From: Anolis carolinensis
Lineage: Eukaryota
Length of the DNA: 64,000 nucleotides
Assembly (NCBI RefSeq): GCF_035594765.1
Contig: NC_085844.1
Coordinates: 175,848,107-175,912,106, forward strand
Direction of reading: 5' to 3'
Positions 10,101-63,992 of this stretch are shown in pieces; positions within the stretch are counted from its first letter, which is position 1; each line of letters opens with the position of its first letter. A program made the position numbers and the translations under genes. The notes under the pieces are model-generated. The model ran no database searches. It had not been told where the DNA came from and saw only the letters and a list, made by a program, of their open reading frames with translations.

Positions 10101-10566
10101 ACCTCTTTTTCAAGCATAGCGTTTGAAGTACTAAACTTCCGTAAACCTCTGTAAATTTCTGCAGGGCACAAAGTCCTGTTCTTGAGTCTGAAAACTTCTG
10201 TCTCGCATCTGCTGCATAGAAAAGCTTTTCTGCTATCTGCTCAGGAAAGCCAATCAATGAATCAACATGATTCATGTTGTCAGCAATGTAACTCAAGACT
10301 AAGTTGAAGAGAGATTTGGCCGAATAGCGCAGATTTCCCTCCTTGGTGTAGGTGAAGATGAAATGATCTGTCCTTCCGTTGTCATTACCTCTGTTCACAT
10401 AAAGCTCAACAGAGAATCCTTTGGAGAACAGCCTTGAAGGCCCTGGATTTACAGCACGGTTGTTTACTCTTCCTGTATTTTTATTCACTTTATATAGCTG
10501 TCCATTTTCTCGAACATATATAGGCCCTCTATCAGGGAGATTTTCTTCATGGAGATAGTATGACAT
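2933..10566 (-). CDS. LRRC42: Leucine-rich repeat-containing protein 42; 7 coding exons: complement(join(2933..3186,5313..5397,5812..5925,6119..6207,6788..6906,9590..9721,10103..10566)), 418 aa
   Basis: Starts MSYYLHEENLPDRGPIYVRENGQL...; contains LFSKGFSVEL, FIFTYTKEGNLRYSAKSLF, YLVISEKLEEIKSF, LKDNCLSDAGLRKMTAPVR, CKTEGWAEQ; ends DLDLLNSY* (TGA at 2935-2933). All junctions GT-AG with consistent phase; total 1257 nt. Confidence 0.95.
4621..5074. mobile_element. Probable solo LTR (454 bp) in LRRC42 intron
   Basis: Starts TGTCG, ends CAACA; flanked by 4-bp direct repeat CTAT (4617-4620 / 5075-5078); no internal coding domain. Confidence 0.6.
7127..7193. repeat. (TTA)n microsatellite, likely the tail of an adjacent LINE remnant
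   Basis: About 22 TTA units read directly. Confidence 0.9.
7514..8849 (-). mobile_element. Non-autonomous Helitron, 3'-clipped
   Basis: Minus strand begins A|TCTATATAAAAA at 8849 and ends in ...GCCACAGCAACGC (7526-7514), identical to part of the 3' hairpin of the full Helitron at 61478-63493, but without the terminal CTAG; internal ~60-bp degenerate tandem repeats (7530-7990) resemble Penelope pLTR sequence. Confidence 0.65.
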
Positions 10567-10948
10567 TCCTCTTGAAAATTTTTGGGGCAAAATAAACAAA
10601 GCAAAACATCAAACAAAGCAGCAGCAAATTCAATTTATGAAAGTGTCTTTTACTGTCATAGCCAGCTTATACTGTACTTCATAATTAAAAAACAAAAGAA
10701 AAACCAAGCTTTCAATGGGAGACACAGATATTGAATAAAGGCTAGAATCTATTCAGTATAGCATAAATATCCACTAAGGGAGGCAGACAAAATTTCTTCC
10801 TTTTGTAAAAAAAATGATATAGAAATTACAGGCATTCCCCAAGTTATTAACTATTTTTATGCATTTAAACTTGTAATCAACGGCAGTCTTCCCATGAATA
10901 GGAAGCCAGATGGTTTAGAAAGCATCCTTTTTGTGTTTCCTTCATGTG

Positions 10949-11728
10949 TAGGCAATCCTCCAGTTACAAACATTCGACTTACAAACGACTCATAATTTAA
11001 AAAGGGACTCATAGTTTAAAAAAGGGCGTGAGAACAACAGGAAGCGAGAGAAATCTATCCTAGGAAGGGGAATTCACTCCTGAAAGAGTTATCATGAGGG
11101 AAAGATGTCTCCACTGAAGCTTTCTAACCAATCCTTGTTTCTACAACAAGCCAAATTTTTCCAAATCCAATTATCACAGGGAGAGAAAGTAGGGTATAAT
11201 CATTTGAATAGGGGCAGAGACAGTAAAACAAACCCCACATGGGTATTAACCCTTCCCTATGCTATTTAAAGCATACACACACACACACACACACATACAT
11301 ATATATGGCTGAAAATGTGTACTACAGTAGAGTCTCACTTATCCAACATAAACGGGCCGGCAGAATGTTGGATAAGCGAATATGTTGGATAATAAGGAGG
11401 CATTAAGGAAAAGCCTATTAAACATCAAATTAGGTTATGATTTTACAAATTAAGCACCAAAACATCATGTTATACAACAAATTTGACAGGAAAAGTAGTT
11501 CAATACGCAGTAATGTTATGTTGTAATTACTGTATTTACAAATTTAGCACCAAAATATCATGATATATTGAAAACATTGACTGCAAAAATGTGTTGGATA
11601 ATCCAGAATGTTGGATAAGCGAGTGTTGGATAAGTGAGACTCTACTGTAGTTCCAACTAACATGCAAATTCAATTTATGAACAAACCTACAGAACCTATT
11701 TTGTTCGTAGCTTGGTAACTGCCTGTAC
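10949..11728. mobile_element. Tc1/mariner(pogo)-like MITE with a second MITE (11325..11647) nested inside
   Basis: Imperfect TIRs (AGGCAATCCTCCAGTTAC / GCTTGGTAACTGCCTG) flanked by TA; inner element has TIR CAGTAGAGTCTCACTTATCCAA with TA flanks. Confidence 0.6.
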
Positions 11729-12232
11729 ACCACAGCCAGATGATTAATGTTTTCCATAATATTTTTAATAATTTCACAGATGTAACGAAGTTTGCGTCTC
11801 AATTGCCACTCTGCATTACAGTCTAGATGCAAGAGGGATATAATATAATAATTATAACAATAATAGGTTTGTGTGCCATCAGAAAGCAAATCTGTCACAA
11901 TCTCAGCCAATTGGTCCACCCACACTGTAAAATTAATGTGTTTGGCACCACTTTAAGGACCATAGCTTTTCAATCTTCTTTGCCAAAGAGTGAGTGCCTC
12001 ATCAAAATGCAACTCCCAGGATGCCATAGCACTGAGCCATGGCAGTTTAAGTGGTGTCAAACTGCATTAATTCTGTAGCATAAATGCACACAAGGTTGGC
12101 ATTTGTGATTTGAGGACCATTACTCTAATTTACTTATTTCTTATCCCGCCTTCCTCCTCATAAGGACTCAAGGCGGCTAACAATGACATGACACTACACA
12201 ACAGGATTAAAAAATATGGCAAATAAATATAC

Positions 12233-12632
12233 CTTATATACTCGAGTATAAGCCAACCCGAATATAAGCCGAGGCACCTAATTTTACCACCAAAAAACTG
12301 GGAAAACATTGACTCCAGTATAAGCCGAGGGTGGTAAATTTCAGAAATAAAAATAGATACCAATAAAATTACATTAATCGAGGCATCAGTAGGTTAAATG
12401 TTTTTGAATATTTACATAAAGCTCAAATTTAAGATAAGACTGTGCAACTCTGATCAAATCATTATTCCCATCTTCTTCAATGTAAATGTGCTTATGTATC
12501 CTTTTAATAGAGTAAAATAATACATGTAATAATAATAATAATAATAAATACAGGAAAATACTACATGTAATAATAGAGTAAAATAATAAATTCAATAATA
12601 ATAATAATAAGATCAGAGTGAAATAATAAATG

Positions 12633-12664
<32 letters not shown>

Positions 12665-12883
12665 GAGTAAAATAAATGTAATAGTAGCAACAATAATAGA
12701 GAAAAATAATAAATGTAATAATATCAATAATAATAGAGAAAAACAAATGTACCATATATTCTCGAGTATAAGCTGACCCAAATATAAGCCAACCAGGACC
12801 CTCACCCGAGTATAAGCCGAGGGGGGCTTTTTCAGTCTTAAAAAGAGGGCTGAAAAACTAGGCTTATACTTGAGTATATACAG
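12233..12883. mobile_element. Tc1/mariner-like MITE
   Basis: TIRs CCTTATATACTCGAGTATAAGCC / GGCTTATACTTGAGTATATACAG with TA flanks; AT-rich (AAT)n interior. Confidence 0.7.
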
Positions 12884-14074
12884 TAATACAGTACAGTCTT
12901 GCTTATCCAACATAAACGGGTGTCAGAACGTTGGATAAGTGAAAATGTTGAATAATAAGGAGGGATTAACGGAAAGCCTATTAAACATCAAATTACGTTA
13001 TGATTTTACAAGTTAGGCACCAAAATATCATATTTTACAACAAAACGACAGAAAAAGCAGTTTAATACACAGTAAAGTTATGTAGTAATTACTGTATTTA
13101 AGAGTTTAGCACCAAAACATCACAATGTATTGAAAACATTGACTACAAAAATATTGACTACTAAAAGGCAGACTGTGTTGGCTAACACAAAACGCTGGAT
13201 GAGTGAAGGTTGGATAATCGAGATTCGAGACTCTACTGTATATAAATACAAAATATCAATATAAAATGTTAGAAAAACAATGAGTGTAAAAGATAAAAAC
13301 ACACCAAGGGGCCCTTCCACACAGCCATATCACCCAGAATATCAAGGCAGAAAATCCCACAATATCTGCTTTGAACTGAGGGCCCTTCCAGGCAGGCCCT
13401 AAATCCCTGGGTCAGGTCCCAGGTTTTCTGTTTATCCCAGATTATCTGGCAGTGGGGACTCATATAATCCAGTTTAATGCAGAAAGACTGGGATCAGATC
13501 TTGGGATATAGGGCTTGTCTGAAAGGGCCTGGGTTATCTGAGTCCACACTGCCATATATTCCATTTCAAATGAGATAATGTGGCATTTTATTCAGCTGTG
13601 TGGAAGGGGCCAAGGAGACCAGGATATGAATGTGCGGCTGGTGGGGACGAGGGAACAAGCCTTCTCGGCAGTGGCCCCCCGGCTCTGGAATGCATTGCCA
13701 AAAGAGTTCAGGCAATCCCCTACATTATCCAGTTTCCGTAAGGAACTGAAGACCTGGTGGTGTTTGCAGGTTTTTGAGTAATTACATTGGAATACCACCG
13801 ATTTCTGGGCCTGAATATATTGCACAAGATTTCTCTAGCCTAAAATGATACATTTTAATATACAGTAGAGTCTCACTTATCCAAGCCTCGCTTATCCAAG
13901 CCTCTGGATAATCCAAGCCATTTTTGTAGTCAATGTTTTCAATATATCATGATATTTTGGTGCTAAATTTGTAAATACAGTAACAGGGCCGGCTGGACAT
14001 ATGAGGCTGCTGAAGCGGCGGCCTCGGGCGCTGGCCGCTAGGGGCGCTGTCGAGGCGTCGACAGCAGCCCATAG

Positions 14075-15332
14075 TGCCACAGCAGAGATTGCCCAATTCT
14101 CCCTTAGTTCCTGGACGCGGCCGCAGCTCGCCCTAACGACCTGCGGCCGCGTCCAGGAAGGGAGAATTGGGCGATCCCTGCTGTGTGCACGCACACAGCA
14201 GAGATCGCCCAATCCTCCTTTAGTTCCTGGACGCGGCCGCAGCTCGCCCTGGCGACCTGCGGCCGCGTCCAGGAAGGGAGAATTGGGCGATCCCTGCTGT
14301 GTGCACGCACACAGCAGAGATCGCCCAATCCTCCTTTAGTTCCTGGACGCGGCCGCAGCTCGCCCTGGCGACCTGCGGCCGCGTCCAGGAAGGGAGAATT
14401 GGGCGATCCCTGCTGTGTGCACGCACACAGCAGAGATCGCCCAATCCTCCTTTAGTTCCTGGACGCGGCCGCAGCTCGCCCTGGCGACCTGCGGCCGCGT
14501 CCATGAAGGGAGAATTGGGCGATCCCTGCTCTGTGCACGCACACAGCAGAGATCGCCCAATCCTCCTTTAGTTCCTGGGCGCGGCCGCAGCTCGCCCTGG
14601 CGACCTGCGGCCGCGTCCAGGAAGGGAGAATTGGGCGATCCCTGCTGTGTGCACGCACACAGCAGAGATCGCCCAATCCTCCTTTAGTTCCTGGGCGCGG
14701 CCGCAGCGCGCCCTGGCGACCTGCGGCCGCGTCCAGGAAGGGAGAATTGGGCGATCCCTGCTGTGTGCACGCACACAGCAGAGATCGCCCAATCCTCCTT
14801 TAGTTCCTGGACGCGGCCGCAGCTCGCCCTGGCGACCTGCGGCCGCGTCCATGAAGGGAGAATTGGGCGATCCCTGCTCTGTGCACGCACACAGCAGAGA
14901 TCGCCCAATCCTCCTTTAGTTCCTGGGCGCGGCCGCAGCTCGCCCTGGCGACCTGCGGCCGCGTCCAGGAAGGGAGAATTGGGCGATCCCTGCTGTGTGC
15001 ACGCACACAGCAGAGATCGCCCAATCCTCCTTTAGTTCCTGGGCGCGGCCGCAGCTCGCCCTGGCGACCTGCGGCCGCGTCCAGGAAGGGAGAATTGGGC
15101 GATCCCTGCTGTGTGCACGCACACAGCAGAGATCGCCCAATCCTCCTTTAGTTCCTGGACGCGGCCGCAGCTCGCCCTGGCGACCTGCGGCCGCGTCCAG
15201 GAAGGGAGAATTGGGCGATCCCTGCTGTGTGCACGCACACAGCAGAGATTGCCCAATCCTCCTTTAGTTCCTGGACGCGACTGCAGCGCGCCCTGGCGAC
15301 CTGCAGCCGCGTCCAGGAAGGGAGAATTGGGC
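14075..15332. repeat. GC-rich 116-bp tandem array (~11 copies), each unit an imperfect palindrome
   Basis: Unit GCACACAGCAGAGATCGCCCAATCCTCCTTTAGTTCCTGGACGCGGCCGCAGCTCGCCCTGGCGACCTGCGGCCGCGTCCAGGAAGGGAGAATTGGGCGATCCCTGCTGTGTGCAC recurs at 14191, 14307, 14423 ... 15235; the period is also visible in the ORF track. Confidence 0.97.
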
Positions 15333-15344
15333 AAGGAGGAGGCA

Positions 15345-15770
15345 AGTGGACAATATCAACAGAAAGGAGGAAACCATGAAAATGAACAAAATCTGGCAAA
15401 CAGCATTTTAAAACTCTAAAATCAGGACAGTAAATAAAGAAACACACTCTGAAAAAGGGAATTCCAGACATGAAACAACCTGGTAACACCTCCCAACAAA
15501 GGATTCCCACAGGTCGGAATCAGCCAGACCTTGAAGCTGCAAGGCTTTTCACTCTAATCAAGGTGATTAATTGCAACATTCACACTTGCCTCCAACAGAC
15601 AAGAATTCTTTCTCCCACCCTGGACCTTCCACAGATATATAAACCTCTCTTGCTTAGTTTCCAACAGACCTCACAACCTCAGAGGATGCCTGCCATAGAT
15701 GTGGGCGAAACGTCAGGAGAGAATACTTCTGGAACATGGCCACGCAGCCCGAAAGACATACAACAACCCT
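15345..15770 (+). mobile_element. Penelope-like element 3' end / pseudo-LTR fragment
   Basis: Reverse complement of the region downstream of the GIY-YIG ORF at 18476-18910; contains a hammerhead-like motif with CAGAGGA in place of CTGAGGA. Confidence 0.75.
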
Positions 15771-15774
15771 AAAG

Positions 15775-16096
15775 GGCAAATGTTTTTCCCCAGACATTAA
15801 GTCCAGTCATGTCTGATTCTGGGGTTTGGTGCTCATCTCCATTTCTAAGCCAAAGAGCCAGCCTTGTCCGTAGACTCCTCCAAGGTCATGTGGGATGACT
15901 GCATGGAGCGGCATTACCTTCCCGCTGGAGCAGTACCTATTGATGCACTCACATTTGCATGTTTTTAAACTTCTGGGTTGGCAGAAGCTGGGGCTAACAG
16001 TGAGGGCTCACTCTGGTCCCCCAATTCAAATCTGCTGCGGCCTTTCAGTCCAGAATTTCAGCAGCTCAGCGCTTTCACACGCTGTGCCATCAGGGG
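15775..16096 (-). mobile_element. Sauria SINE
   Basis: GGTGCTCATCTCCATTTCTAAGCC...TTACCTTCCCGCTGGAGCAGTACCTATTGAT...CACATTTGCATG matches the recalled Sauria SINE body; reverse copy at 63071-63405. Confidence 0.8.
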
Positions 16097-17314
16097 ATAT
16101 TATTTCCTAAAGGTTGTGAATATACAATATTTCTGATTGTTTTTTTTTGTCTGTTAGAGGCAAGTATGAATGCTGCAATTAGGAAAAATGATAAGGATGT
16201 AAAGACCTTGCAGCTTTAAAGCCTGGCTGTTTCCTCCCTGAGTGAATGTTTTGTTGGGAGGTGTTAGCTGGCCCTGATTGTTTCCTGTCTGGAATTCCCG
16301 TTTTCAGAGTGGTGTTCTATGCGATATGTTATGTGCTTCTGCCGTCTGTGGCCGTGAGAAAACAGAGGATTTACCAGACTTTGATGATGGGAATACTTTG
16401 TTGGGAGGTGTTAGCTGGCCCTGATTGATTCATGACTGGATTTCCCCTGCTTTGCTACACCCATTACAATGGTCCACGCTGGCGTGGCACTTCTGAAGGA
16501 CAAGAGTTCACTTCCTGAGAAAGGAAGTGTCTCTTCTCCTGGGGCTGCGTTCTCCCAAACAAAACTGATCTGAAGCTAGTCCGAAGTCTGAAAAATCTTC
16601 TGAAGAGATATCATGACCAGGAAACCTTTGTGTAGTACTTGTAGACTAGAAATAACAAAAAAATTAAAATTGTTGCAAAGTTTATTAAAATATGTATTTA
16701 TTAAAATGCAAGATTGGTGTTAATTCTATGTAATGTTACTATATGAACATAATGTTGTTAATAAACTTCTGGTTGTAAGGTAAACTCTTTTATCCATTCT
16801 ATTCACCTCTACCTTCTACCTTTTATTTCTCGGTGATTGGGGTTTTTTTTGGGGGGGGGGGGGGCACCAAAATCCTGTTTCGCTTACACTTGAAAATTTC
16901 CTTGGGCCGGCCCTGTACAGTAATTACAACATAACATTACTGCGTATTGAACTACTTTTTCTGTCAAATTTGTTGTATAACATGAAGTTTTGATGCTTAA
17001 TTTTTAAAATCATAACCTAATTTGATGTTTAATAGGCTTTTCCTTGATCAGTCCTTATAATCCAAGATATTCACTTATCCAAGCTTCTGCTGGCCCGTTT
17101 AGCTTGGATAAGTGAGACTCTACTGTATTGGGTTTATGGTTCCCGTCCCCTTGATCAGGTCATGTAAGTGTTATTTATTTCTATAATTGTATTTTTATTT
17201 TGCTTAATAATGTGTTATTATGTTGCTATGTAATGTTTGTGTTGTTTTTATGATTGGAAACCGCCCTGAGTCCCATCCGGGAGATAGGGCGGTATATAAA
17301 TAAAGTTTTTTTTA

Positions 17315-17352
<38 letters not shown>

Positions 17353-17703
17353 CCCCTGTTAGCCTGGGGAGCCCATTGGGTGAGTCCTTGGGCCCTTCCC
17401 AACAGCCCTATATCCCAGAATATCAAGGCAGAAACCCCCACATTATCTGCTTTGAACTGAAATATATGGAAGTATGGACTCAGCTAACCCATTCAAAGCA
17501 GATATTGTGGGATATCGGGCCGTGTGGAAGGGCCCACAAACTCTCAGCCACAAAAAAAAACAAAAAACAAACAAACCATGCTATGTTCACCTTAGGGTAG
17601 CCATATAAGTAACAAACGAAGTACAAAGGGCGCAATAGATGTAGGAAGACTTTGCACGGCCCTTTGAGTCACCCTCAGCTTTTTAAAAAGGAGAGAAACT
17701 CAC

Positions 17704-18060
17704 CCCAGAGGCGCCAGGTTGAGTCTTGAGGAGGAGGAGAGAGGGACCACCACCAGCCAGCCAGCCATTCAGCCTTCGAGGCCAGGGCTTCTTTCCATCT
17801 CCACACAAGAGGCAGCAGCGCCACACACACAGAGAGAGAGAAAGCAGAGTCACGCCCGCCTCCTATTCCCCTGCTTCAAGACTTCTCTCTGAGTCGCTTT
17901 GTGCTCTTTTTTTATGTCCAGACACCACCGAAAGGCGCAAAACCCTGTGCAGAAGTCGTCCCCACTCTCCAGTGCCTTCGTCAGGCACAGAGTCCGCCTG
18001 CACTGCGTGTGGACGAGAAAAAGGGAATGGCGGGGAAGGAGCTCTAGACTCCGCAGAACG
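17704..18060 (-). promoter_or_regulatory. Probable non-coding first exon / CpG-rich promoter region of LRRC42
   Basis: CpG-enriched non-repeat segment with a minus-strand donor (GG|GTGAGT; plus strand actcac|ccc at ~17698-17704). The ATG-bearing LRRC42 exon begins with an acceptor at 10570, so an upstream UTR exon is required. Confidence 0.55.
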
Positions 18061-18100
18061 GATGCAATTTGACACCGCTTCAGCTGCCATGGCGCTAGGG

Positions 18101-18234
18101 CAGGCATGGGCAAACTTGGGCCCTCCAGGTGTTTGGGACTTCAACTCCCACAATTCCTAACAGCCGGTAGGCTGTTAGGAATTGTGGGAGTTGAAGTCCC
18201 AAACACCTGGAGGGCCCAAGTTTGCCCATGCCTG
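18101..18234. mobile_element. 134-bp near-perfect palindromic MITE (hAT-like TIR CAGGCATGGGCAAA)
   Basis: Arms complementary over ~64 bp around a short loop; related copies at ~50005-50132 and ~51663-51792. Confidence 0.85.
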
Positions 18235-18475
18235 CCCTAGAATGAACTGGGCATCCCAAACAGCCATTGACAGCCACGAAAGGCGCCCTTTAATGCTGCT
18301 GCAGAGGAATATCTTTGCTTTCCAAGTGGACAAGACAAACCAGTCAGTTAGCAAAGTGCTGCCCCGTTTCTCTTTTTATTCCCCTCTCCTTTTTTTGACA
18401 TTGTACCACGGTCGTTTTAAAAGTACAGTATATCTTTCTTATGCAACTCTCCAGAGGCTTAAAGTGGTATCAGAC

Positions 18476-19385
18476 TGGGTTGCTGTTCATTTTCCGGGCT
18501 GTATGGCCATGCTCCAGAAGCATTCTCCTCCTGACGTTTCGCCCACCACTATGGCAGGCATTCTCAGAGGTTGTGAGGTCTGTTGGAAACTAGGCAAGTG
18601 GGGTTTATATATCTGTGGAAGGTCCAGGTTGGGAGAAAAGAACTCTGTTTGAGGCAAATGGGAATGTTGCAATTGATCACTTTGATTAGCATTTAATGGC
18701 CCTGCAGATTCCTGGCTGCTTCTTGCCCCAGGAAATCCTTTGTTGGAAGGTGTTAGCTGGCCCTGATTGTTTCCTGTCTGGAATTCCCCTGTTTTCAGAG
18801 GGTTGTTTTTTATTTACTGTCCTGATTCTAGAGTTTGTTTGTTTTTTAATACTGGTAGCCAGATTTTTTTCATTTCCATGGTTTCCTCCTTTCTGTTGAA
18901 ATTGTCCAGATGCTTGTGGATTTCAGTGGCTTCTCTGTGTGGCCTGACACGATGGTTGTTAGAGTGGTCCAGCATTTCTGTGTTCTCAATAAATATGCTG
19001 TGTCCAGGTTGGTTCATCAAGTGCTCTGCTATGGCTGACTTCTCTGGTTGAGTTTGTCTGCAATGCCTTTCATGTTCCTTGATTTGTGTTTGGGCAATGC
19101 TGCTGCATTTGGTGGTCCCTATGTAGACTTGCCCACAGCTGCATGGTATACGGTAGATTCCTGCAGAGGTGAGAGGATCCTTCTTGTCCTTTGCTGAACA
19201 TAGCATTTCTTTGATTTTCTTCGTGGGTCTGTAGATAGTTTGTAAATTGTGTTCCTTCTTCAGCTTCACTATGTGGTCAGTGGTTCCCTTGATGTATGGT
19301 AAGAAGAACACTTTTCCTCTGGGTGAATCTTTGTCTTTACTTTCGGGATTTGTTCTTGGCCTTATAGATCTTCTGATGTCTGTGG
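18476..19385 (-). mobile_element. 5'-truncated Penelope-like retroelement: GIY-YIG endonuclease ORF remnant plus pseudo-LTR
   Basis: ORF 18814..19401 contains LPYIKG...GIYRIPCSCGQVYIGTT...IKEH...SAIAEH...REATEI...NFNR, the characteristic Penelope GIY-YIG domain; pLTR with degenerate hammerhead at ~18528-18570. Confidence 0.9.
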
Positions 19386-19429
19386 CGGTGTCAAACTGCA
19401 CTAGCTCTACAATGTAGTTGCACTCTATA

Positions 19430-21092: not shown

Positions 21093-22424
21093 ATGAAGTT
21101 TACAGACTATTGCCTCCGCTCGGAAGGAGCTGAAGTTGTATTGGCAACGTCCAGTGATGAAAAATTTCCCCCCGAAAATATCATTGACGGGTAAGGTTTG
21201 ATCCTGAGCAGAAGTTGTTTGCTGTGTGCCTTCAGTTCAGAAAATGTCTCACTTATGGCGACCCTATTGCTTGGCCATGCCTTCCACGGAGGCTGAATTT
21301 TCGTTTCCTCAAAGTTAGAATCCGAATACATATGATCTTTACTCAAGATGCTTTCCCCATAATATATAGTTCGTTTTGTCAATGTTATTGTTACCCTAGT
21401 AAATAAAATTATTGTATTGTCGAAGACTTTCATGGCCGGAATCACTGGGTTGAGTTTGTATGGCCATGCTCCAGAAGCATTCTCTCCTGATGTTTCTCCT
21501 GCATCTATGGCAGGCATCGTCAAACGTTGTGAAGTCTGTTGGAAACTAGACAAGTGGGGTTTAGGGTGGGAGAAAGAACTGTTGTCTTTCTACCTTGCGG
21601 AATCCTTGGTTGGCCAGTTTGAATAGCAATTAATAGTCTCGGTGTGGCAGGTATGAATGCTGCAATTAGCCACCTTGATTAGCAGTTAATGGCCTTGCAG
21701 CTTCAAAGCCTGGCTGTTTCCTGCCTGGGGGAATCCTTTGTTGGGAGGTGTTAGCAGGCCCTGATTGTTTCCTTTCTGGAATTCCCAATTTCCCTGCTTT
21801 CAGAGTGTTGCTCTTTATTTACTGTCCTGATTTTAGAGATTATATTGTTCTGTATTATTATACCACAGTAATTGTTACATATTATATTTATAATTTTATA
21901 TTATCTGCTTAGAACTGGATTATATGAGGCCCCTTCTATACAGCTGTATAAAATCCACACTGAACTGGATAATATGGCAGTATCGACTCAGGATAATCCA
22001 GTTCAAATCAGATACTGTGGATTATCTGCCTTGGCATCCTGGGTAATATAGCTGTGTGGAAGGGCCTTGAGTCTACACTGCCATATAATCCAGTTCAAAT
22101 TGGATAATTTGTATTTTATAGTGCAGTGTGGATGAGGCCTAAGTGCACTCTTCCTCTGCCCTGGGTACCATTTTGGCTGAGGGTGTTGCTAGGATACGAA
22201 AGGGGCACGGCCTAAAGGCAGGCGGGGGGGGGCTAAAGGCAGCAGAGCTTACCTTTCTAACTGGCAGTTAGTGGGAGAATGGCTCTTTCTCATCCTCTGT
22301 AATTTGGACTATTTTTCTAGATTTTTTTGATTGAAAGACATACCTTGGATGACTATGACTTTTGTGGCCAAATGTGGTGTGGGTTCAGTGGTTTTGCTGT
22401 TTACTCCATAATAAAGTGCCACAT

Positions 22425-48136: not shown

Positions 48137-48594
48137 CGGGTTGCTGTGAATTTTCCAGGCTGTATATAGCCATGTTCCAGAAGCATACTTTAGTGATAAT
48201 GTGTTGTCAAAGGCTTTCATGGCCGGGATCACAGGGTTGTTGTATATCTTTCGGGCTGTGTGGCCATGTTCTAGAAGTATTCTCTCCTGACGTTTTGCCC
48301 ACATCTATGGCAGGCATCCTCATGTTTTGCCCACATGTATGGCAAGCATCCTCAGAGGTTGTGAGGATGCCTGCCATAGATGTGGGCGAAACGTCAGGAG
48401 AGAATACTTCTGGAACATGGCCACACAGCCCGAAAGACATACAACAACCCTGTACTTTAGTGATGTTTTGCCCACATCTATGGCAGGCATCCTCACAACC
48501 TCTGAGGATGCTTGCCATACATGTGGGCAAAACATCACTAAAGTATGCTTCTGGAACATGGCTATATACAGCCTGGAAAACTCACAGCAACCCT
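48137..48594. repeat. Nested inverted-repeat cluster made of Penelope pLTR/hammerhead segments
   Basis: Outer IR 48137-48199 / 48533-48594; inner IR 48233-48322 / 48362-48451. Confidence 0.85.
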
Positions 48595-49779: not shown

Positions 49780-50319
49780 TCCTGCAGCCTAGGCCCGGCT
49801 CAATTCCCCCTCCGCCAGGCGGCGCCATCACTACCTGTCAGCCGTAAAGCGAGGACGTACGGGCAGGCCTCTGTTGCCGGAAAAAGGCGCTTTCCCCGGC
49901 GGTCTCCCTTAAAGTGAAAGAGCGCCCTTGAAGCTTTATATAGGTTCGCTTCTAAGCCCCGCCTCTCTCAGCTCCGCCTTTTAAAGAGACAATTTCGCCT
50001 CACATTGGGCAAGCTTGGGCCCTCCAGGTGTTTTGGACTGCAACTCCCACAATTCCTAACAGCCTACCGACTATTAGGAATTGTGGGAGTTGCAGTCCAA
50101 AACACCTGGAGGGCCCAGGATTGCCCATGCCTCGTGTAGATGAATCAGTAACTATAAAAAACCCCCAAAGTCCTGTTCTTGGAAGCCCCTGGCAAATGAT
50201 TGGCGCGTTTCGAAAAACGTCACCCTTCTTCTAGGCTGCCATTGGCCGGGCGGCAAGGTCTGCCGGGATCGTATCCGGGGGCGTCTCCGGCCCCATTCCG
50301 CCTTCTGCCCGGGAGAAGG
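49780..50319. promoter_or_regulatory. Bidirectional CpG promoter shared by YIPF1 (-) and NDC1 (+)
   Basis: CpG-rich; minus-strand donor CAG|GTAG at 49835 (YIPF1 non-coding exon 1), minus-strand TATATAAA at 49942-49935, GC boxes ~49957-49978, inverted CCAAT boxes 50199-50203 and 50241-50245, E2F-like TTGGCGCG 50200-50207. Confidence 0.7.
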
Positions 50320-53300
50320 ATGCTTCATTCAACGCGGGAACAGCTAAACGTATGTATGGCCTGATGGATGTGCTAAGACACGTGTATAGCATAGTCACGT
50401 CTGAATGGTGGGGAAATACGGGTGAGACACGTGCTCATAAGAGCCACAGAGGACACCTACCTTGTAGAATACATGCGATCTGGCACCACTTTTAACTGTC
50501 ATGGCTTAATGCTATGGAAATTTGGGAGTTGTAGATTGGGGAGGCACCAGCACTCTTTAAAAGCCCTTGTGGAACTACAGCTCCCATAATTCCATAACAA
50601 TGAGCCAAGGCACTTAAAGTTTCAGACTGCATTCATTGACAAGAAACAATCAGAGCCAGTTAACACCTCCCAACAAAGGATTCCCCCAGGCAGAAAGCAG
50701 CCAGGCTTTGAAGCTGCCAGATAATTCAATGCTAATCAAGCTGGCCAATTGCTACATTCACACTTGCCTCCAACAGACAAGAGTTCTTTCTCCCACCCTG
50801 GACCTTCCACAGATACATAAACCTCATTTGCCTTCAGACCTCACAACCTCTGAGGATGCCTGCCATAGGTGTGGGCGAAACGTCAGGAGGGAATGCTTCT
50901 GGAACTCTAAAACTCTAAAATCAGGATAGTAAATAAAGAACAACACTCTGAAAATGGGAGAATTCCAGACAGGAAACAATCAGGGCCAGCTAACACCTCC
51001 CAACAAAGGATTCCCTCAGGCAGGAAGCAGCCAGGCTTTGAACATGCAAGTCAATCAAGGTGATCAACTGCAACATTCACATCTGTCCTAGGCAGACAAA
51101 AGTTATTTCTCCCAGCATGGACTTTCCACAGGTATATAAACCCTACTTGCCTAGTTTCCAACAGACCTCACAACCTCTGAGGATGCCTGCCATAGATATG
51201 AGCAAAATGTCAGGAGAGAATGCTTCTGGAACATGGCCATACAGCCCAGAAAACTCACAGCAACCCAGTAATTAAGTACTGCAATACATGCCACAGGAAA
51301 TAATTCCTGCATTTTTAATGAGTGCTTATGTGCTGGAAATTATTTCACTGACCATCTGTAAAATAAATATCAGCATAATTCGTTGAAAAATTAGTTGTCA
51401 AGCATATTTGTAAATGCGATTTAGTACAATGGTTGGGGATAGCTTACTTTTTGGGAGTAACTGAAGAGTGCATCTACGTTGCAGAATTAATACAGTTTGA
51501 CAATAGTTTAACTGCTATGAAATCATGAGAGCTGTAGTTTTACTAGCTCCTTAGCCTTCTCTGACAGTTCTGGTGCCTCACCAAACTACAATTCCCATGA
51601 TTCCATAGCATTGAGCCATGGCAGTTAAAGTGGTCTCAAACTATTAATTTTAGAATGTAAATCAAGCATGGGTAAACTTCGGCCCTCCAGGTGTTCTGGA
51701 CTTCAACTCCCACAATTCCTAACAGCCGGCTGTTAGTAAGTGTGGGAGTTGAAGTCCAGAACACCTGGAGGGCCGAAGTTTGCCCGTACCTGATGTAGAT
51801 TGTATCTAAAGGCAAGGATTTTTTAAACTTTCTGTTTTCTTTCCTAGATCTTGGGATGGAGAGCCGCTGCAACTATAGCTTGGTCTCTGCTTCTGCTTCC
51901 TCTTTGTGTTGCAGTTTTCATCACCATCAGCAGTGTTGACCTTGTCCACCCTATACAATGGATCACAAGTATGTACCATATCCTGTATGAGATGTACAAA
52001 TGCTTCTCAGCATTTATGTTGCATGTTAATCAAAGTGCACATTGTCTTGGTAATTCTTAACAATAGCCCAAGAAAGGGATGGGAGAGAAAGAATGGCTTG
52101 ACTTAACGACTATTCAGTGACCATCTACATATACCTTGCTAGACCAGACTTCTTGAGTCTGATGTAGTCCAGATGTGTCCCAGCAAGAATAAACCATGAC
52201 CAAGTTTGTTCAGATAATGGGAGTTGTGGTCCAACACTCAGAGAAGTCTGTGCTAAATCATTTATTTATTTATTTATTTATTTATTTTTCAAACTTATAT
52301 GCCGCCACTCCCCTAGGGCTCGGAGCGGCTTACAAGAACCGGCTAAAATCAACAATTTAAAAAACATCTTAAAAACATCTTAAAAAACATCTTAAAAAAC
52401 ATCCTAAAGGCACCTTTTAAAACATCAACAACAGAACTCAAAAGCCTGTCGAAACAGGTGTGTCTTACATGGCCTACGGAAGGCCAACAAGTCCCGCAAG
52501 GCACGAACTTCCGGTGGCAAGGTGTTCCAGAGAGATGGCGCCACTACTGAAAAGGCTCTGCGTCTAGTTGCAGTTAGATGCAAAGTCTTAAAACTGGGGA
52601 CTTCCAACAGGTCTTGGTCCTCGGAACGGAGGGATCTCTGGGGTTTGTAGGGAGTGAGGCGGTCCCTCAGGTACATCGGCCCTAGACCATGTAAGGCCTT
52701 GAAGGTAAGCACCATCACTTTGAAAGTGATCCGGTGCTCAATTGGTAACCAGTGCAGCTGCCGTAAGATTGGTGTTATGTGGCATCTTATCGGGACTCCC
52801 GCAAGGAGCCGGGCAACTGCATTTTGCACCAATTTGAGCTTCCGGATCACCGACACAGGAAAGCCAATGTAAAGGGCGTTACAGTAATCCAGTCTCAAGA
52901 TAACTGTGGCCTGGATCACCGTAGCCAGGTTGTCCCTAGACAGATAGGGGGCTAGCCGTCTAGCCTGCCGAAGATGAAAGAAGGCAGTTTTGGTAACGGC
53001 GGAGACCTGGGCCTCCATCGACAATGAAGGGTCCAAGAGGACTCCCAGACTCTTTACCAGTAAAGATGGGCATAGCACTTCGCCATCCAGGGTTGGCAAC
53101 TGGATATCCCCACTGCCTGGTTGGCCCATCCATAGGATCTCCGTCTTTGCTGGATTCACCCTCAACCTACTGGAACGCAACCATGGTGAGATTGATAAGT
53201 ATGAGCTGGTTCTTGCCTTGTGTGCTCTCCTCTTTCCCTCCTAATAGCACCATTATGTAATATTATGTAATATCATTTTTTTTATTGTTACCATGTTTCG

Positions 53301-62300: not shown

Positions 62301-63992
62301 TAATTACTATATAGCATTACTGTGTACTGAACTACTTTTTCTGACAAATTTGTTGTCTAACATGATGTTTTGGTGCTTAATTTGTAAAATCATAACTTAA
62401 TTTGATGTTTAATAGGCTTATCCTTAATTCCTCATTATCCAACATATTCGCTTATCCAACGTTCTGCCGGCCCGTTTATGTTGGATAAGTGAGACTCTAC
62501 TGTACTGTATTTACAAATTTACCACTAAAATATCACAATGAATTTAAAACACTGACTACAAAAACATTGATTATGAAAAGGCAGACTGCGTTGGATAATC
62601 CAGAACATTGTATAAGCGAATGTTGGATAAGTGAGATTCTTCTTTAATATGAAATAATTACTGGGATAGAATAATGCAGAACAATATAATCTCTAAAACC
62701 AGGACCGTAAATAAACAGGGGAATTCCACACAGGAAACAATCAGGGCCAGCTAACACCTCCCAACAAAGTATTCCCATCATCAAAATCTGGCAAATCCTG
62801 TTTTCTCAGGGCCACAGACAGTAGAAGCACATAAAATATCGCAAACAACATCACTCTGAAAACAAGGGTATTCCAGACAGGAAACAATCAGGGCCAGCTA
62901 ACACCTCCCAACAAAAAATTCACTCAGGGAGGAAACAGCCAGGCTTTAAAGCTGCAAGGCCATTACATCCTAATTATTTTTCCTAATTGCAGCATTCATA
63001 CTTGCCTCCAATAAACAAAAAAAAAACAATCAGAAATATTGTATATTCACAACCTTTAGGAAATAATATCCCCTGATGGCGCAGCGTGTTAAAGCGCTGA
63101 GCTGCTGAATTTCTGGACTAAAAGGCCACAGGTTTGAATTGGGGGAGCGGAGAGAGCCCCCACTTAACAGCTTCTGCCAAACAGAAGCTCCAGCTTCTGC
63201 CAAACTAGAAGTTCGAAAACATGCAAATGTGAGTGCATCAATAGGTACTGCTCTGGCGGGATGGTAACGCCGCTCCATGTAGTCATCCCACATGACCTTG
63301 GAGGAGTCTACGGACAACGCCGGCTCTTCGGCTTAGAAATGGAGATGAGCACCAACCTCCAGAGTAAGACACGACTGGACTTAATGTCTGGGGAAAACCT
63401 TTACCCTTGACCTTAACTACTACCAATTCCTCAATACTTTATTCCACATACCACCATGCTTCGCCACAGCAACGCGTGGCCGGGCACAGCTAGTAAATTT
63501 ATATAAATCTAATTATCTAAATTTGTTTAGATTTGGTTGAGTAATTAAAATAGCTATATCTTTGAGAGTATCGGTTGTGGTGCCTAATGACAATTCTAGT
63601 GATAGAGTTGTGAATTGTTTCCCACATAGTTGGAGGGACTTCTTTCTATATTTTTAATGTACCTGGTTAAAAAATGAAAGAATTATAATTGTTTCCTTAA
63701 ATGGGCAAATGCAGAGGCAATATGGTTTGCATTCTTTTCTGCCCATCGGTACTATGTTTTACATGAGAACATAATGAAATGGCATAAATTATTTTAATAA
63801 TGGTGTTAAATATTATGTCTAGCTACATCTAGTAGCAAAACTCTGGAAATCAGAATAGAAATGTGGTCAACTCGATCTAATTTAATACTTGCCAATGTTT
63901 TCCTCTGCAGTTCTTGGCTTTACAGGACCTGATGTTTCTCTCCCAGTATTCCTCTGTGCGCCGTCAAGAGGTCTTCAGTCTTAGCCAACCAG
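50320..63992 (+). CDS. NDC1: Nucleoporin NDC1 (TMEM48), 5' part; join(50320..50349,51848..51968,53778..53879,55461..55635,57144..57282,57985..58093,58974..59025,59600..59732,60964..61056,63911..63992), continues beyond window
   Basis: [18 protein letters not shown]...HPIQW; [20 protein letters not shown]; CLNEYHLFL...[21 protein letters not shown]; [20 protein letters not shown]; [25 protein letters not shown]. The first coding exon ([10 protein letters not shown], 30 nt, phase 0) is the least certain. Confidence 0.93.
50637..51268 (+). mobile_element. Tandem Penelope pseudo-LTR copies
   Basis: Two head-to-tail copies of the pLTR (CCAGCTAACACCTCCCAACAAAGGATTCCC...AGACCTCACAACCTCTGAGGATGCC), typical of partial-tandem Penelope insertions. 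Confidence 0.8.
50847..50887 (+). ncRNA. Minimal type I hammerhead ribozyme motif of a Penelope pLTR
   Basis: CCT-CTGAGGA-T-GCCTGC(CATAGGT)GTGGGC-GAAAC-GTC-AGG: CUGANGA 50850-50856, stem II, GAAA 50877-50880, palindromic ACGT stem III, GUC triplet 50882-50884, stem I CCT/AGG. Confidence 0.7.
52260..53181 (-). mobile_element. L2-clade LINE 3' fragment with open RT C-terminal ORF (52425..53180)
   Basis: [11 protein letters not shown]...[18 protein letters not shown]...[11 protein letters not shown]...LHWLPI...; (TAAA)n tail at 52260-52285. Confidence 0.92.
54114..55256 (-). mobile_element. Solo LTR (1143 bp) of an LTR retrotransposon in NDC1 intron
   Basis: TGT...ACA termini, 5-bp TSD CTCAG (54109-54113 / 55257-55261), minus-strand AATAAA ~40 nt from the 54114 end. 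Confidence 0.82.
61478..63493 (+). mobile_element. Non-autonomous Helitron (2016 bp) with both termini and captured TE fragments
   Basis: Inserted between A (61477) and T (63494); 5' TCTATATATATAAAA; 3' hairpin GCCAC-AGCAACGC-GTGGC followed by CGGGCACAG-CTAG; no TSD; carries Harbinger and Tc1 MITE pieces, Penelope pLTR pieces and a Sauria SINE. Confidence 0.88.
63071..63405 (+). mobile_element. Sauria SINE (inside the Helitron)
   Basis: tRNA-like head CCCTGATGGCGCAGCGTGTTAAAGCGCTGAGCTGCTGA, body GTGAGTGCATCAATAGGTACTGCT...GGCTTAGAAATGGAGATGAGCACCAAC, tail AACCTTTACC. Confidence 0.85.

Follow-up and report, generated by a model that had tools for sequence, protein, structure and literature searches.

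Tandem repeats borne by MITEs have been described in Xenopus (Xstir/Xmix and miDNA4) and Drosophila (Tetris), and a fold-back model has been put forward for Angel in zebrafish (reviewed, with transposon-borne arrays and fold-back models at large, in PMC9659126 and PMC12628747). For Anolis carolinensis, PMC3014272 describes the orphan non-autonomous elements hAT-N6/N7/N8_AC, which are 288-810 bp long, have the terminal inverted repeat (TIR) CAGAGSCGGYCC and are given there as having no known autonomous partner, as well as the composite elements hobo-N1 to N15_AC, non-autonomous hATs of 1.8 to >3.5 kb with captured fragments of older Penelope elements and SINEs. Non-LTR retrozymes have units that contain a hammerhead and are related to Penelope pLTRs, and they are reported to be excluded from introns (PMC7229834; bioRxiv 10.64898/2026.07.22.740005).

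The locus analysed here has something in common with each of these. In a stretch of 64,000 nucleotides of A. carolinensis DNA (the window), eleven head-to-tail copies of a 116-bp palindromic unit lie inside a composite hAT-type transposon, which in turn splits a MITE within an intron of LRRC42 (Table 1). The array is probably a palindromic minisatellite that arose by fold-back followed by hairpin-promoted slippage or unequal exchange, and that was spread by a young hAT-type family.

Table 1. Positions of the array, its carrier and the surrounding features in the window.
Feature	Position	Strand	Evidence or remarks
LRRC42 first intron, NCBI isoform X1 model	10571..17703	-	Holds the array
Host MITE, TcMar-N7_AC type, split by the insertion	13863..17125	+	TA flanks
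Left target-site duplication (TSD) TACAGTAA	13976..13983	.	
Non-autonomous composite hAT-type DNA transposon, 2,932 bp	13984..16915	+	TIR, TSD, 3' arm contigs
5' TIR plus 5' arm, GC-rich and containing small hairpins, 91 bp	13984..14074	+	Weak resemblance to the unit
Palindromic array	14075..15332	.	10.8 x 116-bp units
Unit 1	14075-14189		More perfect palindrome at three sites than interior units
5'-truncated Penelope-like piece, ORF end and pLTR	15333..15770	+	81% to window copy 18477-18908
Composite of SINE and inverted Penelope piece, cargo	15772..16452	+	88% to window 62713-63408
Element-specific 3' arm and 3' TIR, 463 bp	16453..16915	+	Contigs, Pfam
Right TSD TACAGTAA	16916..16923	.	

The array and its palindromic unit

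TRF placed the repeat at 14078-15332 (period 116, 10.8 copies, matches 97%, no indels), and the eleven unit anchors are spaced by exactly 116 bp. The last unit (unit 11) ends after base 99 of 116 and there runs into the Penelope ORF-end and pLTR piece, the adjacency to which an initial annotation of this DNA had drawn attention. The richness in GC and CpG that it had also described is evident in a GC content of 65% and a CpG observed/expected ratio of 0.87 (vs. 0.32 for the window), and units 1-10 contain two NotI sites apiece (20 in total), whereas unit 11 lacks them. The array is noncoding, since its longest stop-free stretch measures 115 codons and is the same in all six frames.

The unit comes close to a perfect palindrome (fold z about -15). 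All four of the stems named in the initial annotation were recovered, with their TTAG bulge, and the unit junction GTGTGC-AC-GCACAC pairs as it had proposed. The linear monomer folds into a hairpin over the entire unit, with predicted energies of -100.8 kcal/mol for the plus-strand RNA, -108.7 kcal/mol for the minus-strand RNA (z -16.7; none of 200 shuffles as good) and -61 kcal/mol for the DNA (z -14.4; again 0/200), while the circular monomer gives the closed rod that had been anticipated. The paired junction and the closed rod are uninformative in themselves, because any full palindrome repeated head to tail pairs with itself at its junctions. All that the closed rod adds is that the unit boundary is the base of the hairpin, which is what hairpin-mediated slippage or flap retention would predict. 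As for the tandem stems of ~55 bp that a transcript had been expected to form, the stems themselves held up, but not as the sole fold of the array, for which the prediction is a nested long hairpin. If transcribed, the array would yield long double-stranded RNA. Rod-like folding is common in the DNA of this region, as five further whole-length hairpins of 83-148 bp were found within the 64-kb window.

Similar whole-length palindromic mini-elements are located at 18095-18240, 50006-50127 and 51654-51801. The first of these three has 71 of 71 bases paired and lies just upstream of the modelled first exon of LRRC42.

The unit was also compared with known RNAs and with other sequence collections. 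Rfam returned 49 sub-threshold hits, none of them at the gathering score; the best, at 45 bits against thresholds of 84-245, were driven by stem length, and assignment to a microRNA precursor family was rejected. ARAGORN gave no hits, and an exact 22-mer had no matches in metagenome contigs. The hammerhead core pattern is absent from both strands of the array, in line with the initial annotation, which had noted that the unit has no such core.

Variation among the units

The interior units (2-10) differ at only 9 of 1044 positions. These differences trace to four changes, every one of which occurs in at least two units: units 4 and 7 have two linked changes in common, and units 5, 6, 8 and 9 have one. 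The unit order 4-5-6 is repeated as 7-8-9, an arrangement that a post hoc exact test found in 12 of 1260 orders; the planned lag-3 permutation test on the unit variants was not significant (p 0.35). Because the interior mutations are common to several units, the units were re-copied as DNA after mutating, and this sharing of variants shows turnover of units at the DNA level. Homogenisation of arrays spares the end units and divergence at the edges is therefore expected; units 1 and 11 are each off the consensus at 5 of 95 compared positions.

The 5' edge of the array coincides precisely with the palindrome base (TGC-CACAG). Unit 1, for its part, complements the opposite arm at three sites where the interior units do not. 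Both features fit, and point to, a linear founder palindrome. There is no clear sign that the structure has been under selection, as the changes at 7 of the 12 variant sites weaken or disrupt pairing on one strand or both and one further site lies in the loop. The remaining sites comprise two that restore pairs (unit 1) and two that make up a single compensating pair in unit 11 (49 and 72), both being CpG-type changes. Changes of the CpG type are confined to the edge units, a hint of past methylation of the array.

A composite hAT-type carrier

The proposal that the array is cargo in a hAT transposon is borne out by both ends of the element. The 10-bp TIR CAGGGCCGGC at 13984 recurs in inverted orientation at 16915, with 10 of 10 positions identical between the ends, and the 8-bp TSD characteristic of hATs, TACAGTAA, flanks the element on either side; the TIR may also resemble hAT-Tip100 ends. 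A short TIR starting YARNG is a hAT criterion in PMC3014272, and CAGGGCCGGC begins in this manner. The element is a clean insertion into a MITE: once the insert and one TSD are subtracted the host measures 323 bp, its two halves meet at the same position of another copy in the window, and its TIR and length agree with those of TcMar-N7_AC in the same source (PMC3014272). The annotation's alternative of a mobile minisatellite is likewise supported.

The 5' arm includes a small hairpin at 14035-14070 (GCTGT-N10-ACAGCAG) whose outer stem and spacing, judged by eye, are those of the array junction hairpin; its inner sequence is unlike that of the junction hairpin. A Helitron-type origin was considered and dropped by eye, the CTRR motifs beside hairpins having no TC start following them. 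The first 180-270 bases of the 3' arm, translated in the three plus-strand frames, gave no Pfam families.

The piece that adjoins the array consists of the end of a reverse transcriptase (RT) ORF and then a pLTR with a hammerhead motif, the Penelope layout described in PMC11167929. A Pfam search of its ORF piece gave nothing significant; the ORF of the related copy at 18477-18908 is 79% identical to an Anolis RT protein. The hammerhead-like motif, at 15680, has the core CAGAGGA instead of CTGAGGA, with an A at position 15681 where T is the majority letter in all four of the sequencing runs that we compared (see below). A second loose match to the hammerhead pattern occurs at 16600 in the 3' arm, and the motif in the Penelope piece is the only hammerhead-like motif of the element with the Penelope layout. 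The Penelope piece next to the array is older, decayed cargo.

The SINE in the remaining cargo is presumably a Sauria/ACA SINE. A second composite of SINE and Penelope, at 62713-63408, does not lie within any CAGGGCCGG-TIR element, and the composite is therefore a repeat in its own right.

Further Penelope sequences are scattered through the window. They include a minus-strand Penelope-like insertion at 18477-19389, with an open stretch of 180 codons that is 79% identical to an Anolis RT protein, and two tandem pLTR pieces at 50638-51266, of which the one at 50850 retains an intact hammerhead core pattern. In the region 48233-48594, copies of the Penelope hammerhead/pLTR end are entangled, some inverted and some in tandem; this local fold-back structure has two hairpins of 83-93 bp and 89-bp pieces that are 95-99% identical to 15682-15770.

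The family in public sequencing runs

Among the 24 runs listed in a search of public sequencing data, 20 hold at least half of the words, and all 20 derive from one organism (eight studies); the four listed runs from other organisms had a word share of 0.00, which is no proof of absence. None of the holder runs listed is recorded as RNA, a result that bears in no way on expression. Contigs from 4 of the 20 holder runs (X1, X3, X10 and X17) were compared over 15217-17300, with one array period included. The 3'-arm contigs had 0-1 differences in both X10 (depth 3010-4309, vs. 41-62 for four other listed contigs) and X17 (depth 293-363, vs. 6-12 for four other listed contigs), and in these two runs they were 25-100 times deeper than the other contigs listed, a ratio of depths that is not a ratio of copy numbers. 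These contigs suggest a young and probably multi-copy hAT-type family that has the 3' arm in common. Its size, read from contig depth and thus not a direct count of copies, would be tens to a few hundred young copies.

An X10 contig with no differences (depth 3609) bridges the SINE cargo to the 3' arm, and the SINE cargo is therefore a feature of the family. In X10 and X17, contigs also continue beyond the last unit into the Penelope piece, covering 28 letters of it where 31 were required, and are suggestive of a junction common to the family contigs. In all four runs, the last ~150 bp of the element were 3-15-fold deeper than the rest of the 3' arm, suggesting that a larger set of elements has the same 3' end.

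The unit itself was present in each of the four runs, and the 116-bp tandem joint ('goes back 116') appeared in eight contigs among those listed for X1. Unit 11 has private changes at four listed sites, and at these sites every one of the four runs shows the letters of the interior consensus. Relative to the 3' arm, the depth of the unit was several-fold higher in X1 and X17, in keeping with some ten units in each element, and about equal in X3 and X10, where GC or hairpin dropout may have reduced it. The low unit depth in two of four runs suggests that arrays of this kind are undercounted in short-read data.

Position of the array in LRRC42

The exon at 10105-10566 (minus strand) is 100% identical to A. 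carolinensis LRRC42, and the N-terminal extension of NCBI isoform X1 maps to 17706-17768 (minus strand), followed by GG and a GTGAGT donor. The array thus lies in the modelled first intron of this isoform, the location that the initial annotation had considered probable. Two orthologues begin at the downstream ATG at 10566, with the intron upstream, so that with this start the intron belongs to the 5' UTR. According to the gene model, transcription would run through the array. Effects at the RNA level, among them a long minus-strand duplex in the intron, would be a by-product; copies in introns would make it easy to test what reptiles do with long duplex RNA of this kind.

The extension of isoform X1 comprises 23 residues and is absent from the two orthologues checked. 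An IFT25-like first exon is located head to head at 21093, 3.3 kb from the upstream LRRC42 exon. No Pfam families were found in the LRRC42 and IFT25 exons, whose identities came from other comparisons.

Origin of the array

In the origin that we favour, a palindromic minisatellite formed in DNA, a single fold-back duplication of ~56 bp would likely have generated the 116-bp palindrome, and end-to-end duplications, through slippage promoted by hairpins or through unequal exchange, would likely have followed. Flaps that form hairpins withstand FEN1 and are able to cause expansions (PMC12708500). The young, multi-copy hAT-type family is likely to have spread the array passively, with mobilisation presumably provided in trans by a hAT transposase, and the family founder is likely to have picked up the Penelope and SINE pieces as old genomic DNA. 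Counting against this origin are the non-significant lag-3 test, the unit depth in X3 and X10, the compensating pair in unit 11 and the place of the array, which adjoins a sense-strand Penelope piece just where that piece is truncated on its 5' side, as a template switch would leave it. The ordered variants amount to a clean natural record of the passage from palindrome to minisatellite.

It is unlikely that the unit was instead an independent, palindromic MITE-like mini-transposon of 116 bp with ends TG...CA, which inserted into the hAT founder and was tandemised there. Unit 1 and the right arm do give complementary ends, TGC(A)CACAGCAG...CTGCTGTGTGCA, three whole-length palindromic elements of 122-148 bp occur in the window, and models for the tandemisation of MITEs exist (PMC12628747). 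However, units in the TG...CA register have no intervening TSD, solo copies of the unit number zero within 64 kb, and the depth ratios can be explained without copies outside the family.

Still less probable is a mobile dsRNA cassette, in which a concatemer of a closed 116-nt rod (either a circular RNA that has no ribozyme or a DNA dumbbell with hairpin caps) would have been picked up by a hAT and carried to tens to hundreds of sites, some of them in introns, with a read-through duplex of several hundred bp that would be diced or edited and would regulate the family or its host genes.

We also hold it very unlikely that the array arose by amplification of a subterminal repeat in the 5' arm of the hAT and supplies extra transposase-binding sites. 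The array begins 91 bp from the 5' end of the element, and the 5' arm aligns with the unit at 28 of 41 columns, but this best local score was reached by 35 of 1000 shuffles, with four regions tested, and the 3' arm has no similarity to the unit (155 of 200 shuffles score as well).

The initial annotation had raised the possibility of a concatemer copied from a circular or rod-like RNA by Penelope machinery: a small circle would have undergone rolling reverse transcription by the Penelope RT after a template switch, leaving a concatemer joined to a pLTR. The closed rod of the circular monomer would fit such an event, as would the location of the array directly 5' of a truncated sense-strand Penelope piece, the same junction in contigs of X10 and X17 (28 Penelope-side letters vs. 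the 31 needed) and the fold-back tangles of Penelope ends at 48233-48594; reptile retrozymes, moreover, have a mean length of 176 bp and a link to the pLTRs of Penelope (bioRxiv 10.64898/2026.07.22.740005). Yet the unit has no ribozyme, reaches the gathering score of no Rfam family and has no pLTR homology, its similarity to the Penelope piece not being significant (scores as good in 13 of 200 shuffles). On a circle no point is a natural beginning, whereas the array begins at the palindrome base; variants common to several units reflect re-copying at the DNA level; and the Penelope piece shows decay, including a mutation in the core of its hammerhead. The proposal is not upheld by these results, and we regard it as highly improbable. 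Membership among the retrozymes was likewise rejected: the array does have short tandem units, but neither the hammerhead nor the relationship to pLTRs.

No better placed is the rolling replication of a 56-bp DNA dumbbell, hairpin-capped at both ends, for which hairpin-forming hAT cleavage or a parvovirus-like terminus are possible sources. Its expected product is an (a a')n array with tips of 2-4 nt at both axes, which is the pattern seen, and the carrier is a hAT-type element; a repeated linear palindrome, however, produces the identical pattern. In addition, the asymmetries of the unit (the TTAG bulge and mismatches) are found in every unit and so predate the amplification, and an exact 19-mer had no matches in viral contigs, although this is a weak test.

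Finally, the chance of an assembly artefact is negligible. GC-rich hairpin arrays are hard to sequence and unit depth was low in two of four runs, but the units bear distinct, patterned variants and the unit is present in all four runs, with its tandem joint in X1.

Comparison with known elements

Searches of the literature, by topic and with six unit motifs, yielded no description of the element, which may already be catalogued in Repbase, Dfam or miRBase. Neither 'palindrom' nor 'hairpin' occurs in the main text of PMC3014272, and the three supplement files of PMC11167929 that were covered gave no hits.

The anole element has much in common with hAT-N6/N7/N8_AC: an 8-bp TSD, a young age, no known autonomous partner and nearly the same TIR (CAGAGSCGGYCC vs. 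CAGGGCCGGC(T/C)). It differs from them in having G for A at position 4 of the TIR, with further differences at 11-12 of the 5' end, in its length of 2,932 bp vs. 288-810 bp, and in its palindromic array and retroelement cargo. It is a close relative of these elements and not a member of the same family, being set apart by TIR and length. With hobo-N1 to N15_AC, from the same species, it has in common that it is a composite non-autonomous hAT carrying Penelope and SINE pieces; their TIR, TAGGCTT..., is different, and the accessible text on them describes no tandem palindrome array. Like non-LTR retrozymes it combines short tandem units, an association with Penelope and a reptile host, but its unit has neither a hammerhead nor a relationship to pLTRs, and the available parts of the retrozyme sources do not describe retrozymes as hAT cargo.

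In its mode of action the locus resembles Xstir, miDNA4 and Tetris, as these are reviewed: an internal tandem array is dispersed by a non-autonomous DNA transposon, and models of origin invoke stem-loop DNA. In contrast to those arrays, the anole unit is a near-perfect palindrome throughout and is repeated without a spacer, so that inverted repeats alternate along the array, which is carried by a hAT. Such a fully palindromic, spacer-free unit was not found described in the literature, a distinction drawn from published descriptions and not from comparison with repeat databases. A lizard hAT family that is absent from the tables of PMC3014272 thereby joins the transposons that both breed and spread tandem repeats.
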